From Chloroflexota bacterium (GTDB taxonomy: Bacteria; Chloroflexota; Chloroflexia; QHBQ01): DNA of 33,248 nucleotides. The position numbers are program-made. Of the stretch, positions 27,001 through 33,000 are shown piece by piece. Position 1 is the first letter of the stretch, and every line of letters begins with the position of its first letter. The stretch is from assembly GCA_043754535.1 (NCBI GenBank), contig JAYUUN010000081.1, positions 1 through 33,248 on the forward strand, in the 5' to 3' direction.

Positions 27001-30000
27001 ACACCACCAGACCAGGGGGCAGCATCCTCCGTGGGGTTGAGGGCCGCAGATGCATACTTCCAGGTGTTGGCGGTGCGGTCAACCTCCACGTACTTGTCCA
27101 CGCCAGGGTAGTTGTTGTCGTAGACGTGGATAAGGTAGAGGCCGTTGCCCTTGTCCTCAATGGAGTAGGGAGTGACGGCGTGGCCGCCGCCCTTGAAGTA
27201 GAAGCCGAGGGTGTATTGGTCAGCAGCCCCAGGCTTGAACGAGGCGATCAGCATATCGAGGATTTCGCTGGGCGACTTGCGGCGGGTGGCAGCCGACTCG
27301 CTGGCGACCGGCTCTACTCCCTGGTAGGCCCAGCCAACCGAAATCAGGCTGCGGAGCTTGTCGTTCCCTTCCAGCTTGAGGTCGAAGGGGCTGTCCGCGC
27401 CATAGTCGGCGGCCTTAGCCTTACCCTCGTACATCAGCAAGGTAGCGACGGCAAAACCTTCGCAACTACCGCCGTTGATACCCTTGTTCTGCTGATCGAG
27501 CCATTGCAGGGCTGCCGTGCCAGGCACGCAAGTGGCACCGCTACCGGTCGCGCACACGGCCTTGTCACCAAACATCTGGCGGGTATCGGTGATGGTCAGA
27601 CCAGCAGGAGTTTCTGGGTACTTGCCGCCGTAGTTGGGGAAGCTGAAGCCATTGGGCTGAGAGCGGAAGCCGATGTCAGCAGTCGTCCCACCAGGCACAG
27701 CCGCCGCCACCGTGTCGGTTGGGACAGCAGCCGCCCCTGCTACTGTGTTGGTGGGGGCAGCAACCATCACATCGGTTGGGCCAGCATCATTCTTGGCGAT
27801 GCTGGTGCCGGTTGGGGCAACGGCAGCCGAGGCTAGCGTCGCGGTTGAGGCCGCAGCAGGCGCAGTAGCCGGGGGGGAGTCGCCGCCGCAGCCAGCCAGC
27901 GATAGGCTGATAGTCAGCAGTAGAACCAAAGCCATGAGCTTCTGGTGGTGAGGTTTGTACATTCTTCCTTGTTCCTTCCTTCTTGTAACGGTGGATGTAG
28001 CTGTGCCGAGGCGCGATCCAGCACACAACTGCCTACCAGCCGGAGCAGACCTGCCCAGGCTGGCTGAACAACTTCTCAGCAGGTGTAAGTATACTACTTT
28101 GTAGCAGGCTTGCATAGCACCTAACGCCAGTAGTTTGGCACGAGTTTGGCGACCGCCCGCTAGCCAGCAACGGCCCACGGTTGCCAGGATGCGGGCAACC
28201 TCCAACCTTCACCAGCAGCACTGTGTTATAATAGCAGCAGTGGATTGGCGACCGGTATTTGGTGAGCAAAAGGAGGTTCAAGATGAAGGACTCGGATGTG
28301 AACGGCATGATCATGGGACTTGGGGCTGCCATACTCATGTTCATCGCCCTGGCGTTGGTGAACCGCATTATGGGGCGCAAGGTTAACTGATGAACGAGCA
28401 ACAGCAGAGCAGGGCAACTACCCTCTTTTACGCCGTGTTCTTCGCCTTCTTTCTGGCCCTGGTCAGGAAGTTCTTCAGCCGCAGCAAGTAGTCCCAGGGG
28501 CGCACCTGCTACGCTGCGCCCCCTCTTTCGGCGGCGGCTCTCGGCTCTACCAGGCTGCTTGCAGACAACTGGCCGCCCACTCGATGGTGGCAGCCATCTT
28601 GCCCAGCAATGCCGTGCGGCTGCTACCCGTGCTGCTCACATCAATGCAGGAGAGAGGGCCGCGCAGGGTCTGCGTGCGCCCGTCGCGGCTGGTCAGTTGC
28701 AGGGTAACAATGCTGGCCGCCGCTAGTAGCGCGTCCTCGTCCGGCTGCACTGTCCCCCACAACACCAGGTCGGCCCCTACCTCGGCTGCCAGCAGGCGGG
28801 CGGCTGCTTCCTCGTTCAAGGCTGGCCCCAGGGCGATCAGCGGGTTGATCTGCTCAACCCCCCCCTTGCGTAGCTGGGCAGCCACCATCCCCGGCACCAG
28901 GTCACGCAGTTCGTAGCAGCCTCCGCCCTGCTCTGGCGCAATACATTGCAGCGCGCAGATGTAGAGGCGCACAGCGGCAGGGCGAAGGCTGGCAGCTATG
29001 TTGAGCGGGGGCTGGTTGTTGCTGATCTGGGCAAACGAGGGGTTAATTTCCATGTTAGTCTCCAATATTGAGCGAGGTCAGGTGTAGCTTGCGTTTACGC
29101 AAGTTCATCCAATTATAGCCTCTCCCCTGCCATTTGGCAAGTCCTACTTGCCATACCGCAAGTGCCGAAACCAAAAGTACCCCCTCTAGTATCAGAGCAG
29201 GTACTTTCTGGCTATCTAGCTCCCGTGCAAGGGGGATTAGCTGCACTCGATCTTGACGAAGCGACGCTTGCCCGCCCGTACGATCAGCCCAGCTACCGGC
29301 TTGACGCTGGCATTGGGGTCACTCACCTTCTGCTCATCCAGGCTGACCCCACCTTGCTCGACCAGGCGGCGAGCCTCCTTGCGGCTGGGCGCGAGGCCAC
29401 ACTTGAGCAGCAGGTCAAGAATGTTGGTCGATTCGCAGGCTAGCTGGGCCGTGGGGATTTCATCGGGCAACCCCTTGTCTTGGAACACGGTGGCGAAGTG
29501 TTGCGCCCCGGCCTCGGCCCCCACATCGCCATGATAGAGGCGCACAATCTCGGAGGCTAGCCGCTTCTTCGCCAGCATTGGGTTCTGGCCTGCCGCGAGA
29601 TCGACCCTGATCTGCTCGATCTCAGCTAGTGGCACCTCAGTGGTAGCAACAAAGTAGTCCACGATCTGCTCGTCACTCAGGCTCATCACCTTGCCGTACA
29701 TATCAGCTGGCGCGTCGATGATGTTGATCGTGTTGCCCCAACTGCTGCTCATCTTACGCCCATCCAGACCCATGATCATCATATTAGTGATGATCTGCTG
29801 CGGGTTTTGGCCGTAAGCCTTCTGGATCACCCGCCCCGCTGTCAGGTTGAACAACTGGTCGGTGCCACCCAACTCTATGTCGGCGCGCACTGCTACGCTG
29901 TCGTAACCTTGCATCAGCGGGTAGAGGAACTCTTGCAGGCCAATCGGCTTGTCATCCTCCCACCGCTGCTTGAAGTTCTCGCGCTGGATCATCTGTGCGA

Positions 30001-33000
30001 CGGTGAACTGGCTAGCAAGGCCGATCAGGGCTGCGAAGTTCATCTGGCCTAGCCACTCGCTATTGAAGCGGAACTCCACCTCACCCTGATCGAGGATGCT
30101 CCTGATCTGGTCAATATAGGTCGCCATGTTCTGGCCCACCTGGGCTGCCGTCAGCATTGGGCGGGTAGCATCCTTGTCGCTGGCATCACCAAGCTGGCCG
30201 GTCACATCGCCGATGATAATCACTGCCTGGTGGCCCAGCTTCTGAAACTGGCGCAGCTTGCGGATCGCTACCGCCCGCCCGATGTGTATTTTGCTGCTGG
30301 TTGGGTCAATGCCGAGCTTGACCCGCAGTTGCCGCCCGCTCCGCAGCAGCTTTGCCAAATCCTCACGCACAATCACATCCACCACTCCCCGCGTCAGGAT
30401 ATCCTGGATCGCCACCTCATCAGTGCTGATCTTTGGGGGGGCCAGCATCTTCTCGGCCTCTGGCGGGGCGGTTGGTAGCGGTTGGCTAGCCTGGTCGCCG
30501 ATGATCTCGCTCATGTCGCTGATCAGCGGGTCTGCGAGGTCGAGGTCGTCGTCCGGCCAGGAGCAGCGGGGGTGTTGGCGGTCAAGGTGGAAGGTGCGCA
30601 CCTGCCCACCCAGTTGCTCATGCACCAGCTTCGCCAGCTCGTCAGTGGCGGCGCGCACCTGCTCCTCGTTGACCCCTAGCCAGCCGTCAATAGGGAGAAA
30701 GACGGCCACGCTGTCCTCACGTATCTTCGCTCCATTGCCCTGCCGCCAAACCCAGCGGCGGGTTCGCACCTGGTTGCTGTCGTCCACGTAGACAAACTCA
30801 CCAGCGGGCAGTTGCTCCGGCTCGCCCGGCTCGTCGTCACCGCCAAGAGGCTGAAAGAGGTCGCCCTCACGAGCGGGGCGCAGGGTGATGTCGCCGACGG
30901 TGCGATCCAGGTCGTGTGCGCCAATCGGCAGCAGGTACTTGAGAGCGACGCTGTTTGCCAGGTCTACCAGCGGGTTGATGTGGGGCAGCTTGCCTTTAAT
31001 CGCCCGGCCAGCTAGGGCCTCGATGCTGACGGGGTACTTGTTGGCGTTGATACCGAGGGCGGTGAACGCCTGCCGCCAGGCTGCAATGCCGGGGCTAGCT
31101 TGCAGGGCAGAGAGGCTGGCATACTGCGCCCGCAGATCGGTAATCGCCTGATCTAGGAGGAAGTCTATCGCCTCGTCATCGGCATAGTCCTGCCCCACCC
31201 CATGAGCGACCACCACGCCGAGGTAGAGGTTGGGGAACCGTTCAAGTACCGCCTGATCAATCGTGAAGTGCATTCTGCTAACCTCATCCCTTTTGGCTGC
31301 TAACCGCTTGCCGCTCAGTCGATTGAGTACTCGCATGACGCGGCCACTCTGCACAGCGGTCAGGTGCGCCTGCATGACAGCCAGTTGTTGGCGCAGGTTG
31401 GCGATCTCGTCCTCCAGGTTCTGCACCCGCGCCGCCCCGCTCATGGGCGAGGCCGCTTGCCCGTAATCGGGCAGGTGGGCGGCCAGCAACTCAGCGTCAC
31501 TCAGGCGGGCCTGCTCTGCACCAAAGCGTTTGAGGCGGGCAATGGCTTCGTGTTCGCGGTAGGCCAGTTCGCTACCAACCACAGGCTGGGCGGCGGTCTG
31601 CTGCCGCTTGCGCTCGGTCAGCATCTCTAGCAGGGGAAGGAACTGCTGTGACCGCGCTTCGGGCGTGTAGCGCACAAACACGTCGTCGAAGGCCGCTCTG
31701 CCGATACGCACCCGCTCCGCAGGGTCGAGCAGCCGATAGATCGCCGCCGCCCACTCGTCGTCGCCGCTGGCTAGCAGGCCGTTCTCGCCGTCGCGGATCG
31801 CTTCCCGAAAGGCGGGAGTGGGGCTGGCGATAGTGGGTACGCCGACCACCCCGGCCTCAAAATACTTCAGCTCGCTCTTTGCCATCGCGAACGGGTTGTC
31901 CAGTTCGAGGGGGGCGAGGTTGATGTCAGCCTGGGCCTGGATGCTGGGCAGTTGCCGCCAGGGAACGAAGCCGAACCGCTGCACCCGTGCTGTCCCTTCG
32001 TACTGGAACAGTGGCTCTGGCAGGCTCAGGTAGCCGCCAACCAGTAGCCTCACCTCTGGCCGCTCGCTCATCACCCGTGCCAGGGCAGGGACGACCAGAG
32101 CAAAGTCGCGGCTGTGGCTAGGCGAGCCGCTCAGGTAGCAGATGGTGATCGTAGCTGGGTCGCTGGTTGCCGCAGGCTGGGTGGCGAAAGCTGGTTGCTG
32201 CTGGGTAGCATAGATGATCTGGTCGTCGTAGAGGGCGTTGCGATTGACAAAAGCAGGCTTGCCGGTCTGCTCCGTCACCTGCGCGGCCAGGTAGGGGGTG
32301 CTGGTCAGGGCGAAGTCGCACTGGTCGAGGGTGGCGCGGTTGGCCGCGAACTGGCGCAGGTGCAGGGCGGTGTCCGCAGGCGGCATCTGGTAGAGCAGGT
32401 CGATCCGCTGGGCCAACTCTGGCAGGAATACAAGGTCATCGGTATCGTAGAGCGCAAGTTGGCCGCGATCCTGGATCACCGCCAGCATGGCGGCCACGGT
32501 CGGGGTGTAGCTGGCCCGGCAGAAGATGAAGGTGTCGTAGTCGCCCAGGTCGGCCAGCAGCAGCGGGTCGTCGGCGGAGCGCACAGCAGCGGCCACCCCT
32601 GCGAACCAGAGTTGCTCGGCCTGGTGCCAGGCGCGGTAACGCTCGGTGTCGCCGCTCCAACCAGCAATGAACAGTACCTTCACTGGCTCAGACTCCGATC
32701 CCGTTGTGCGGGCGATTGGCCGTCGCCTCGTCCTGCGCCAGGCTGCGGTCAAACTGGGACTGCGCCTCGGCACTAGCCTGCGCCCCGGCCAATTCCTCAC
32801 CGCTCAAGAGCAGGTCGCTGCTACTCTCAGCGTACTCTGCACTGGCTAGCTCGTGGCTGGTGGTACCATTCGTAGCCACGCCGTTGCTAGCTGGTTGGAG
32901 CAGGTCGTGCTTGCCGTTGCCGTTCAAGGCTGGCGAGGCAGCAGGCGGCCCAATGAAGTCGGCAGCCACGCCACTCGGTTCGGTGAACTCGCCGATCAGG

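Follow-up and report, generated by a model that had tools for sequence, protein, structure and literature searches.

A sole tyrosyl-tRNA synthetase fused to a CtdA-like B3/4 domain in a Chloroflexota bacterium: a putative tRNA-Tyr editing module

The hydrolase folds of ProRS INS/YbaK/ProXp, AlaRS/AlaX and ThrRS N2 occur both as free-standing proteins, acting in trans, and fused to a synthetase, acting in cis. For TyrRS, ArgRS, LysRS-I and LysRS-II we know of no post-transfer editing domain, and TyrRS is generally regarded as accurate enough to do without editing. AARS Online, in the accessible part of its domain tables, does not list an editing domain for TyrRS, and no description of the fusion reported here was found in the searchable literature. 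Within the B3/4 fold, the substrate of the CtdA-1 type, tRNA-Arg, was shown by experiment, and the accessible text of the CtdA study draws an analogy with INS (PMC12449066).

The window analysed here spans positions 1 to 33,248 of contig JAYUUN010000081.1 of a Chloroflexota bacterium (GCA_043754535.1; G000 below). In it lies one minus-strand frame of 1148 codons with no internal stops, ending in a stop codon at 29237-29239, whose parts are as follows (residues counted from the GTG at 32683).

29237..32683, minus strand: whole frame, GT4 + B3/4 + TyrRS (ORF listing, translation; same unbroken frame in G036)
31295..32683, minus strand: GT4 glycosyltransferase module, residues 1-463 (Pfam GT1-family models; Pfam core residues 192-350 = 31634-32110)
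31274..31294, minus strand: seam, residues 464-470 (KRDEVSR), from the old tyrS leader (junction comparison with G037/G038/G039)
31282-31285, minus strand: GAGG ribosome-binding-site remnant in the seam (same comparison)
31271..31273, minus strand: ATG of Met471, ancestral B3/4-TyrRS start and possible internal start (G038 start alignment)
30554..31273, minus strand: CtdA-like B3/4 domain, residues 471-710 (Pfam, PDB sequence alignments, AlphaFold2 and Foldseek)
30953-30955, minus strand: B3/4 pocket residue N577 (invariant columns)
30914-30922, minus strand: B3/4 pocket residues G588-A-H590 (invariant columns)
30740-30763, minus strand: B3/4 pocket stretch T641-RRWVWR-Q648 (invariant columns)
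30686-30694, minus strand: B3/4 pocket residues P664-I-D666 (invariant columns)
30419..30553, minus strand: low-complexity linker, residues 711-755 (pLDDT <60 in model residues 245-285)
30446-30448, minus strand: Met746 inside the linker (aligns with the start Met of the plain TyrRS of a related genus)
29240..30418, minus strand: complete bacterial TyrRS, residues 756-1148 (TIGR00234; PDB matches 6bqy, 1h3e)
30275-30286, minus strand: TyrRS motif HIGR, residues 800-803
residues 939-943, minus strand: TyrRS motif GGTDQ
29741-29755, minus strand: TyrRS motif KMSSS, residues 977-981
32688..33248, minus strand: 3' part of an upstream gene for a Wzt-type ABC-exporter ATPase, truncated at the edge of the window (G038 orthologue)

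The ORF listing extends the frame to 29237..32800 (1187 aa counted from the first GTG). The GTG at 32683 is the counterpart of the ATG start in free-standing GT4 orthologues (VKVLFIAGW vs MKALFIAGW) and sits 4 nt past the stop codon of the upstream gene. Pfam matches on the 1148-aa protein are Glyco_trans_1_4 (192-320), Glyco_trans_1_2 (204-349), B3_4 (535-689, 2.1e-22), tRNA-synt_1b (783-1068, 3.4e-68) and SYY_C-terminal/S4 (1074-1143), the last marking a C-terminal S4-like domain on the TyrRS, and the NCBIfam tyrS model TIGR00234 scores 347 bits over residues 759-1147 (cut-off 113.8). The three modules in one open frame, as the survey's finding had them, are thus confirmed, and the claim that this is the sole TyrRS is supported. 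TIGR00234 has one match in G000, which is 88.9% complete; the two PF00579 matches besides the fusion gene (three in all) are TrpRS (TIGR00233, 304 and 286 bits; cut-off 176.75), and the two PF03483 matches are the fusion gene and, again as claimed, pheT. No further tyrS was found in G000, and in five of five high-quality genomes, including two closed ones, a B3/4-TyrRS gene is the sole tyrS above the cut-off.

What recurs widely is B3/4-TyrRS without GT4. In a phylum sample of 401 genomes (400 plus the window's own), 24 of the 400 others carry the B3/4 domain within a frame of at least 600 aa, and all 26 long frames tested, each checked singly, hold both B3_4 and tRNA-synt_1b, in agreement with the reported recurrence in Chloroflexota. 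TyrRS fusions make up 92 of the 93 database proteins of at least 425 aa that carry this domain; the remaining one is an ArgRS fusion and bears the other, CtdA-1-like domain type. The B3/4 domain begins at residue 1 in 89 of the 92 other fused proteins. Linkers in 53 fused proteins range from about 10 to >90 aa and contain a Met in three; in homologues where only ~10 aa separate the modules, the protein must function in its fused state (a short-linker homologue was modelled with pTM 0.76). The B3/4 module is dispensable: one genus holds orthologous tyrS genes (74-81% identical) both with and without it, with no remnant left. The plain TyrRS of G031, whose start Met aligns with Met746 of the window protein, begins MADPPTISTDE. 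Stand-alone members, with no synthetase attached, account for 623 matches, and the fused domain belongs to this large, uncharacterised and mostly stand-alone clade. No TyrRS was found among 576 ORFs at 80 loci of stand-alone relatives, nor a T-box core motif directly upstream of them, so the link to tRNA-Tyr comes from the fusions.

A PDB sequence search with residues 469-710 returned, below E 0.01, only CtdA (9f7e, 2e-16; 9mkl, 2.6e-14). In an AlphaFold2 model, the B3/4 domain superposes on 9f7e in Foldseek with TM 0.87 and rmsd 2.7 Å over 231 columns at 26% identity, and the TyrRS part matches the T. thermophilus TyrRS:tRNA structure (TM 0.81); this model of the window protein reaches pTM 0.60, and 40 aa of its linker are disordered. 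All 38 columns that are invariant in the stand-alone family are retained in the domain, and the clade keeps the CtdA core residues N105, G116, W171 and R172, upholding the claim that the deacylase motifs are kept; His replaces E118 and Thr replaces C166. Its assignment to a CtdA-2-like clade did not hold up as well. C166 is described as missing in bacterial CtdA-2 in the accessible part of PMC12449066, whose data set includes Chloroflexi and Bacillota sequences of several types. The window domain has an invariant Thr at that position and an RRWxWRQ motif that gap-type sequences lack, and the solved CtdA is nearer to it (E 2e-16) than to a gap-type Chloroflexota protein (1.6e-5). This sequence comparison therefore does not confirm the CtdA-2-like label.

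CtdA-1-like domains have fusions of their own, which are new here: 104 matches comprise 60 with ArgRS, 25 with class II LysRS, 18 with class I LysRS and one with another protein. Rescanning upheld this architecture in 10 of 10 proteins; the domain lies at the N terminus of some of them and at the C terminus of others. We regard the CtdA-1-like/ArgRS pairing as a positive control for inferring substrate from fusion partner. While N105, G116, W171 and R172 are common to all partner groups, position E118 is acidic in the ArgRS fusions (Glu, 58/59) and the LysRS-II fusions (Asp or Glu, 23/25), against His in the TyrRS fusions (89/90) and the stand-alone relatives (120/120). At Q173 the Arg/Lys groups carry Glu or Asp and the TyrRS group carries Gln or Leu, C166 is Cys as opposed to Thr (90/90 TyrRS fusions), and N170 is Asn as opposed to Val or Ile. 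The pocket residues, acidic in the ArgRS/LysRS type and neutral in the TyrRS type, thus co-vary with the partner. A tree separates TyrRS-fused and Thr-type stand-alone domains from ArgRS/LysRS-fused ones with 100% SH-aLRT support.

We think it probable, with considerable reservation, that the gene encodes a housekeeping TyrRS with a CtdA-like B3/4-fold deacylase module tethered in front, to which a GT4 fusion was added separately in this genus. The most likely putative function is post-transfer clearing of tRNA-Tyr that bears an uncharged tyrosine analogue. TyrRS would now and then charge tRNA-Tyr with a non-cognate, uncharged, probably aromatic analogue; the 3' end of the mischarged tRNA could then reach the tethered pocket, in the same dimer or after release, where a water held by the conserved N577 would cleave the ester bond. 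Correct Tyr-tRNA-Tyr would be spared through pocket fit, and stand-alone clade members would act likewise in trans. Weighing against this reading are the dispensability of the module in one genus, the absence of TyrRS from the 80 loci of stand-alone relatives, the general accuracy of TyrRS, and a model whose disordered linker gives no fixed cis geometry. The earlier interpretation is partly supported overall: its proposal of cis editing on tRNA-Tyr gains from the 92/93 TyrRS pairing, the ArgRS/LysRS sister fusions and the pocket co-variation.

Aminoacyl-tRNA synthetases often acquire appended RNA-binding domains, and the B3/4 module could be such a domain, not a hydrolase here but a tRNA-binding or chaperoning addition that raises TyrRS affinity for tRNA-Tyr. 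A structural role or binding of the CCA end could explain the residues shared by every group, and close relatives do without the module. We nevertheless hold this to be unlikely, given the 38/38 retained columns, among them the Asn whose mutation kills CtdA (PMC12449066, accessible part), and the hundreds of members without a synthetase; partner-specific pocket chemistry is also hard to square with a pure tRNA-backbone binder. Quite unlikely, in our view, is an active deacylase working in trans on another tRNA, e.g., Tyr- or m-Tyr-tRNA-Phe, with the TyrRS fusion serving only co-expression. Its long flexible linker would permit this, and the fold is derived from the Tyr-recognising editing domain of PheRS (PMC12449066, accessible part). 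However, PheT of G000 keeps all eight E. coli editing residues named in that source (R244, N254, Y255, H265, F267, A312, G318, E334), so there is no editing gap to fill; the pocket is CtdA-like, not PheRS-like, with G588 in place of His265 and Q648 in place of Gly318, and the TyrRS pairing and the ArgRS/LysRS parallels favour the partner's own tRNA.

The pocket differences between partner groups point to side-chain discrimination and so speak against a chirality checkpoint, in which the domain would clear D-Tyr from tRNA-Tyr in place of D-aminoacyl-tRNA deacylase (DTD) or as its backup. D-Tyr is a classic TyrRS error, and in family f11 a DTD match is absent from three of four fusion genomes (81-99% complete), but G000 itself encodes DTD (TIGR00256, 159.6 bits); with DTD in 19 of 24 fusion genomes and 375 of 401 sampled genomes, DTD and the fusion are not complementary, and we judge this reading very unlikely. 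Least credible of all is a joint function of the three modules as one unit, such as glycan synthesis coupled to tyrosyl-tRNA. The frame does stay open across two species and several independent assemblies, and all three parts are under purifying selection (pN/pS 0.12 for GT4 against G036, 0.09 for B3/4 and 0.05 for TyrRS), yet such selection on each part is expected even where a frame is merely shared, the three-module form is restricted to one genus, in the sister genus the GT4 gene lies elsewhere, behind the same Wzt gene, and the junction resembles the product of a simple deletion in which the old leader and start codon survived.

The GT4 fusion is indeed confined to the genus: it occurs in G000 and G036 only among 40 genomes of the order, and in the window's own cluster only among the 93 longer proteins. 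The three-module frame is unbroken in eight of nine cluster members (JGI, ENA, Logan, NCBI), and contigs from four further runs show no indels in it. The GT4 module includes the C-terminal coiled-coil-like tail known from the free-standing orthologue; such orthologues in G037 and G038 (68-69% identity over residues 2-421) follow a Wzt-type ABC ATPase. Pfam gave no match on the upstream fragment 32688..33248 itself, but its G038 orthologue has ABC_tran and Wzt_C and the same C-terminal sequence, a neighbour that places the GT4 module in a polysaccharide-cluster context. In G037, G038 and G039 the separate genes show a GT4 tail '...RRLAA' and a tyrS leader 'AAGGAGG n5-6 ATG', and the G038 start MKFTID aligns with M471 HFTID of the window. 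The GT4 part is a genus-specific in-frame fusion that kept the original start M471 and an RBS remnant. Through a rearrangement or deletion in the genus, a polysaccharide GT4 gene would have lost its final codons and its stop and been joined in frame to the tyrS leader, so the cell could make GT4-B3/4-TyrRS from GTG 32683. That B3/4-TyrRS is also still made from Met471 by internal initiation is plausible, as the survey had proposed, although it had placed this Met at 472 on the same numbering.

The fusion suggests a tyrosine proofreading step not described before. Compared with CtdA, the canavanyl-tRNA-Arg deacylase (9f7e, 9mkl; CtdA-1 clade, PMC12449066), the window domain has a B3/4 fold alike over its whole length and shares S80, L84, N105, G116, W171, R172, Q173 and the RRWxWRQ motif, whereas E118/C166/N170/I189 become His/Thr/Val/Pro, changes that are (near-)invariant across the clade. 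CtdA is free-standing and acts on tRNA-Arg; the window domain is TyrRS-fused, a putative deacylase known from sequence and model. The B3/4 editing domain of PheRS beta, of the same family (PF03483), has the same layout, a cis post-transfer editing domain inside a synthetase, and its conserved Asn (Tt N250, Ec N254) corresponds to N577. The sequence match is weak (E 0.022, 63 residues), and His265, Gly318 and Glu334 of the Tyr-recognising site, all present in G000 PheT, are not conserved in the window domain. Canonical TyrRS of the T. thermophilus type (1h3e/9sdf) is matched in its catalytic, anticodon-binding and S4-like domains at 39% identity, with HIGR and KMSSS in place of HIGH and KMSKS; to this plan the window protein adds an N-terminal extension of 470-750 residues. 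The editing modules of ProRS, AlaRS and ThrRS show the same evolutionary pattern of trans and cis forms, but in a different fold.

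On its minus strand the window has a single open frame, 29237..32800 in the ORF listing, and translation from the GTG at 32683 yields 1148 residues with no internal stop. This GTG lies 4 nt past the stop of the upstream gene, and free-standing GT4 orthologues of the sister genus have their ATG at the aligned position (VKVLFIAGW in the window versus MKALFIAGW); given both the spacing and the alignment, we take it as the correct start. The gene contains the following features, numbered from this codon:

Residues 192-350, minus strand: matches to three GT1-family Pfam models
Residues 535-689, minus strand: B3_4 domain (Pfam PF03483, 2.1e-22)
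Residues 783-1068, minus strand: tRNA-synt_1b domain (Pfam)
Residues 800-803, window 30275-30286, minus strand: HIGR, at the class I HIGH position
Residues 977-981, window 29741-29755, minus strand: KMSSS, at the KMSKS position
Residues 1074-1143, minus strand: TyrRS C-terminal/S4 domain (Pfam)

The C-terminal GT-B Rossmann domain of the GT4 module exceeds the Pfam cut-offs for PF13692 (52.9 bits, cut-off 27), PF13524 (48.2, 25) and PF00534 (38.2, 26.4), and NCBIfam TIGR00234 (tyrS) scores 347 bits (cut-off 113.8) over model positions 7-405 of 406. The ORF, translation, Pfam and NCBIfam results confirm the survey's finding that GT4, B3/4 and TyrRS modules share one frame. The gene is also, as claimed, the only TyrRS gene found: G000, the genome of the window, has one tyrS match, a count limited by an assembly of 132 contigs that is 88.9% complete, and its two further class-Ic genes are TrpRS. 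B3_4 occurs there in the studied gene and in pheT only. TyrRS activity is implied only by the gene being the sole tyrS found. Among 53 fused proteins the H, G and K-M-S of the signature motifs, and, for the Tyr-binding GGxDQ / YPxxQxxD segment, Y453, Q457, D460 and GG..Q are invariant; relatives in Chloroflexia carry HIGR/KMSTS, and a Dehalococcoidales relative, like other fused proteins, HLGH/KMSKS. KMSSS is known from human TyrRS.

Misassembly does not explain the 1148-codon frame. In G036, another species of the genus, it recurs at identical length, with 97% identity and no indels. The protein's 90% cluster has nine members, of which eight measure 1148 or 1155 aa and derive from contigs in JGI, ENA, Logan and NCBI. 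Four more metagenome runs, from four studies, have contigs that span the gene; these differ by 11-14 substitutions and by no indel, and 10 of their 15 variable sites are synonymous. Between G000 and G036, pN/pS is 0.12 in the GT4 module, 0.09 in B3/4, 0.30 in the linker and 0.05 in TyrRS.

The origin of the GT4 fusion can be read from the sister genus (G037 and G038), where GT4 is a gene of its own, situated after a Wzt-type ABC ATPase gene (ABC_tran + Wzt_C). The GT4 product is 68-69% identical to residues 2-421 and ends in '...GRVMRLLNWVTGRRR' or '...KRRRRLAAIILSYAP'; the B3/4-tyrS gene lies on a different contig, its leader carrying AAGGAGG 5-6 nt ahead of the ATG. In the window the GT4 tail extends to '...GKRLAA' and is followed by seven codons for KRDEVSR, reading 'AAAAGGGATGAGGTTAGCAGA', and then by ATG-Met471 and 'HFTID', which corresponds to the G038 start 'MKFTID'. 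A GAGG remnant lies 8 nt ahead of this old tyrS start codon. The anatomy of the junction therefore indicates that a GT4 gene, almost complete, was joined in frame to the former tyrS leader. Internal initiation at this codon, which the survey numbered Met472 and which is residue 471 counting the GTG as 1, is plausible from its sequence context. The GT4 fusion is confined to the genus, as had been proposed, occurring in G000 and G036 only among the 40 genomes of the order and in the window's own cluster only among 93 longer domain-bearing proteins; 89 of the 92 other fused proteins begin directly with the B3/4 domain, at residue 1. A third, nested start is conceivable at Met746, which has GAGG 8 nt upstream (together within window 30446-30465) and corresponds to the initiator Met of the plain TyrRS in G031, a genome of the same order. 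As Met occupies this position in just 3 of 53 fused proteins, an internal start for TyrRS alone is not supported as a conserved feature.

Two other genes of the window were noted:

21994-24099, minus strand: 701-aa predicted lipoprotein with three similar internal segments ('...MKALKSYRL...' or a variant) and Thr/Gly/Ser-rich spacers; a weak DUF2092 match and nothing else
24374-25963, minus strand: 529-aa multi-pass membrane protein whose GT87 match stays below threshold (21.5 bits, cut-off 25)

The latter, considered alongside Wzt and GT4, suggests a gene neighbourhood for cell-envelope glycans.

Without its GT4 extension, the B3/4-TyrRS unit is recurrent. In the order it forms a single frame in G037, G038, G028, G029, G032 and G033, and in G039 it lies in contig-end pieces; the third family of the order has a plain TyrRS, with a free-standing B3/4 gene in four of its genomes. 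A relative of residues 469-710 is present in 96 genomes of the 401-genome phylum sample, and 24 of the 400 genomes other than G000, across many families, have the domain in a frame of at least 600 aa; these order and phylum counts, and those for the scanned frames and for D-aminoacyl-tRNA deacylase (DTD) below, include the unpublished genomes G002-G004, G027, G266 and others. The survey had not checked singly that the long frames hold TyrRS: all 26 that we scanned (20 from the phylum sample, six from the order) carry B3_4 and tRNA-synt_1b, which substantiates the claimed recurrence in Chloroflexota. Five high-quality fusion genomes, including two closed ones, have no tyrS over the cut-off other than the fused gene. 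Among 5.8 billion clustered proteins, 93 of at least 425 aa contain the domain, and 92 of these combine B3_4 with TyrRS; the named ones are each a 'tyrosine--tRNA ligase' of Chloroflexota, Chloroflexia or Dehalococcoidia. The linker between the modules ranges from about 10 to more than 90 residues, and TyrRS alone therefore cannot be made from the fusions with the shortest linkers. One genome, G100 (contamination 7%), has B3/4 matches in two long frames (C261:246-959, 698 aa, and C226:4170-4877, 734 aa), which may be two fused genes or reflect a mixed bin.

The B3/4 module is dispensable. The plain TyrRS of G031 (L017, genus g4) shares 74-81% identity with the corresponding parts of four fused genes (L012-L015, from G028, G032, G029 and G033), as near to these as they are to one another, and its gene shares a downstream gene with the fused tyrS of the genus; no B3/4 remnant with E below 1 was detected upstream of it. 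A 72-row tree requires seven changes between fused and stand-alone states, its starred branches force at least three, and a five-member fused clade (P0205-P0207, P0211 and P0212) is nested among stand-alone proteins. A single fused clade was not rejected in an AU test (p 0.2), and a FastTree tree likewise did not decide between a single and a multiple origin of the fusion.

An AlphaFold2 model of residues 469-1148 built from 53 sequences has a mean pLDDT of 90.8 and a pTM of 0.60, with disorder at model residues 245-285. In Foldseek comparisons, its B3/4 part matches the whole chain of the canavanyl-tRNA-Arg deacylase CtdA (9f7e_A; TM 0.87, rmsd 2.7 Å, 231 columns, 26% identity), and its TyrRS part matches tRNA-bound T. 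thermophilus TyrRS (TM 0.81). The model of a short-linker homologue, P0153, reaches a pTM of 0.76 and is compatible with a defined domain arrangement. Residues were mapped through HMMER alignments to 9mkl and 9f7e, the chain numbering of 9mkl being that of the paper plus 2. According to the available part of PMC12449066, N105, G116 and Q173 of S. enterica CtdA are functionally essential, and C166 and E118 determine specificity in the canavanine/arginine pocket. The essential residues are present here as N577, G588 and Q648, the last within W646/R647/Q648 (CtdA W171/R172/Q173), in agreement with the survey's statement that the deacylase motifs are kept. At other positions the domain differs: E118 is replaced by H590, C166 by T641, N170 by V645 and I189 by P664.

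These residues bear on what the domain could be. The fold and the essential residues are those of CtdA, but both specificity residues are replaced, which on this residue test sets the domain apart from canavanyl-tRNA-Arg deacylases. An editing domain of the PheRS beta type, the other B3/4 form in G000, would have His265, Gly318 and Glu334 (E. coli numbering) in its site; in contrast, the first two positions are here Gly and, through the structural equivalence of Q173 and G318 given in the available part of PMC12449066, Gln, and we rejected this assignment. The domain might instead replace a degenerate PheRS editing site, but PheT of G000 retains all eight E. coli editing residues listed in that part of the paper. 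Nor does the fused domain act as a general substitute for DTD: G000 itself encodes DTD, as do 19 of 24 fusion genomes and 375 of the 401 phylum-sample genomes, so that the two co-occur and show no complementarity. Family f11 (G040, G066, G102, G090 and others) has DTD (PF02580) in just one of six genomes, and three of its four fusion genomes lack a DTD match at 81-99% completeness.

Within the CtdA family, the domain has 623 free-standing matches, the best 120 of which are 229-265 aa long with 41-50% identity; names among these relatives include Bacillota, Methanocella, Anaerolineales, Limosilactobacillus, Aggregatibacter and Cardiobacterium. Eighteen of them share 38 invariant columns with the window domain, including N, G-x-H, T-R-x-W-x-W-R-Q and P-I-D, so that nothing distinguishes the fused domain as unusual within this large, uncharacterised clade. 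The available part of PMC12449066 (2025) describes the function of relatives outside CtdA-1 as unknown and defines CtdA-2, from Chloroflexi, Bacillota and archaea, by about 20% identity to CtdA-1 and a C166 'missing' in bacterial members. Its supplementary alignment contains Cys types (CRRWNWRQ), Thr types from Bacillota and Chloroflexi (e.g., Megasphaera A0A413QWA1), Ala types and motif-free gap types. The gap types, which lack RRWxWRQ, include Dictyobacter A0A402B2E7 and Anaerospora A0A4R1PXR7, together with our loci L138 and L140, whereas the studied domain has Thr at 166 and retains RRWxWRQ. L140, from Chloroflexota, aligns to the studied domain over just ~80 residues and matches solved CtdA with an E value of 1.6e-5, versus 2e-16 for the studied domain. 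The survey had termed the clade CtdA-2-like; under the C166-missing diagnostic, the Thr type does not appear to fit well with CtdA-2. A Cys-type (A0A1G5S005) and a Thr-type protein (A0A1G5S4M8) occur together in Acidaminobacter hydrogenoformans in the same supplement, and their presence in one Bacillota species argues for different functions. The Chloroflexi set of the paper also contains an Ala-type sequence (VIARRWCWRQSE). A PheT-derived family tied to tyrS by name, NCBIfam NF045867 ('TyrS-associated PheT N-terminal domain-related protein TapR'), has only a weak match in G000, in pheT.

Stand-alone relatives of the domain were surveyed in 80 loci. None of their 576 ORFs is a tyrS, and what we take to be the T-box core motif, with up to two mismatches allowed, was not found directly upstream of the stand-alone gene in any of the 80. 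The B3/4 gene could be placed in 66 loci, and 13 of the 52 close same-strand neighbours scanned encode a MerR-HTH + GyrI-like regulator directly upstream on the same strand, ~15-180 nt from the Thr-type B3/4 gene (L088, L093, L094, L096, L098, L099, L106, L109, L114, L120, L131, L132 and L134, all from Clostridia-like genomes). Such regulators are presumably small-molecule sensors, and the pair looks like a small-molecule-inducible two-gene unit.

The one protein of the 93 without TyrRS, P0213, is an ArgRS with an N-terminal domain of CtdA-1 signature (GGEN, CRRWNWRE). A search with this domain among proteins of 591-1883 aa gave 104 matches: 60 ArgRS, 25 class II LysRS, 18 class I LysRS and one other. 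The ArgRS fusions come from Patescibacteria lineages and Vallitaleaceae and the class I LysRS fusions from archaea and Patescibacteria; most of the synthetase fusions (P0213 and P0230-P0331) carry the B3/4 domain at the N-terminus, some at the C-terminus, and the architecture was as stated in 10 of 10 rescanned proteins. The only non-synthetase partner is P0332 (947 aa), in which the B3_4 match (E 8.7e-11) is joined to KaiC/DnaB/AAA-type and acyltransferase Pfam families. As CtdA-1 acts on canavanyl-tRNA-Arg, shown experimentally according to the available part of PMC12449066, and is fused to ArgRS, the logic that a fusion partner names the tRNA is validated.

An alignment of 312 domains shows S80, L84, N105, G116, W171 and R172 conserved in all groups, with the following variation at four further pocket positions.

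Residues at pocket positions by synthetase partner (S. enterica CtdA numbering)
Position 118: ArgRS, Glu 58/59; LysRS class II, Asp 20 and Glu 3 of 25; LysRS class I, Asp 12 and Phe 5 of 18; TyrRS, His 89/90; stand-alone Thr type, His 120/120
Position 166: ArgRS, Cys 57/59; LysRS class II, Cys 23/25; LysRS class I, Cys 13/18; TyrRS, Thr 90/90; stand-alone Thr type, Thr 120/120
Position 170: ArgRS and both LysRS classes, Asn in every member; TyrRS, Val or Ile; stand-alone Thr type, Thr, Val, Ile or Ala
Position 173: ArgRS, Glu 58/59; LysRS class II, Glu 24/25; LysRS class I, Glu 13 and Asp 5 of 18; TyrRS, Gln 70 and Leu 20 of 90; stand-alone Thr type, Gln 120/120

The charge of the pocket tracks the partner, being acidic with synthetases for the basic amino acids (Arg, Lys) and neutral with that for tyrosine. 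A 46-row tree separates the TyrRS-fused and Thr-type stand-alone domains from the ArgRS- and LysRS-fused ones with 100% SH-aLRT.

We tentatively propose that the CtdA-type B3/4 fold serves generally as a plug-in module for post-transfer editing, which TyrRS, ArgRS and both classes of LysRS would have acquired repeatedly, at one end or the other, with its pocket tuned to the amino acid of the partner. The Thr166/His118 clade, whose stand-alone members number in the hundreds across Bacillota, archaea, Chloroflexota and some Proteobacteria, in Clostridia often under a MerR/GyrI-like small-molecule sensor, would then be a tRNA-Tyr-specific deacylase that guards translation against a natural tyrosine antimetabolite. 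We consider this proposal as a whole possible, if not quite probable. For the window protein, the architecture, its conservation, the selection on it, the partner specificity and the pocket co-variation are observed; as to mechanism, the domain would hydrolyse tRNA-Tyr bearing a non-cognate, uncharged and probably aromatic analogue, either on the same dimer or after release. Catalysis would proceed through an Asn-positioned water, as described for PheRS and CtdA in the available part of PMC12449066.

If the proposal is correct, a conserved and selected deacylase module on the sole TyrRS of many Chloroflexota adds proofreading to subclass Ic, and a tRNA is assigned to a sizeable part of the CtdA family that is as yet uncharacterised. 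The fusions render the question of a tRNA-Tyr deacylase directly testable. The parallel fusions to ArgRS and LysRS, whose pocket chemistry matches the partner, suggest that defence against amino-acid antimetabolites has a broader, hidden tier in which each fusion names its own tRNA.

TyrRS is a textbook case of fidelity without editing, and to our knowledge no post-transfer editing domain is known for TyrRS, ArgRS or LysRS of either class. AARS Online, in the part available, lists TyrRS without an editing domain, and databases label the B3/4-TyrRS proteins simply as tyrosine--tRNA ligase. In the open-access literature and bioRxiv, to which the search was confined, we found no description of B3/4 on TyrRS, ArgRS or LysRS; the words 'fused' and 'fusion' are absent from the available parts of the CtdA papers PMC12449066, PMC12268091 and PMC10018355, and the sole 'fusion' in that of PMC13149037 is a purification tag. 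The protein is a synthetase with an appended editing-type module, a kind already known, and its fold is familiar from PheRS and CtdA.
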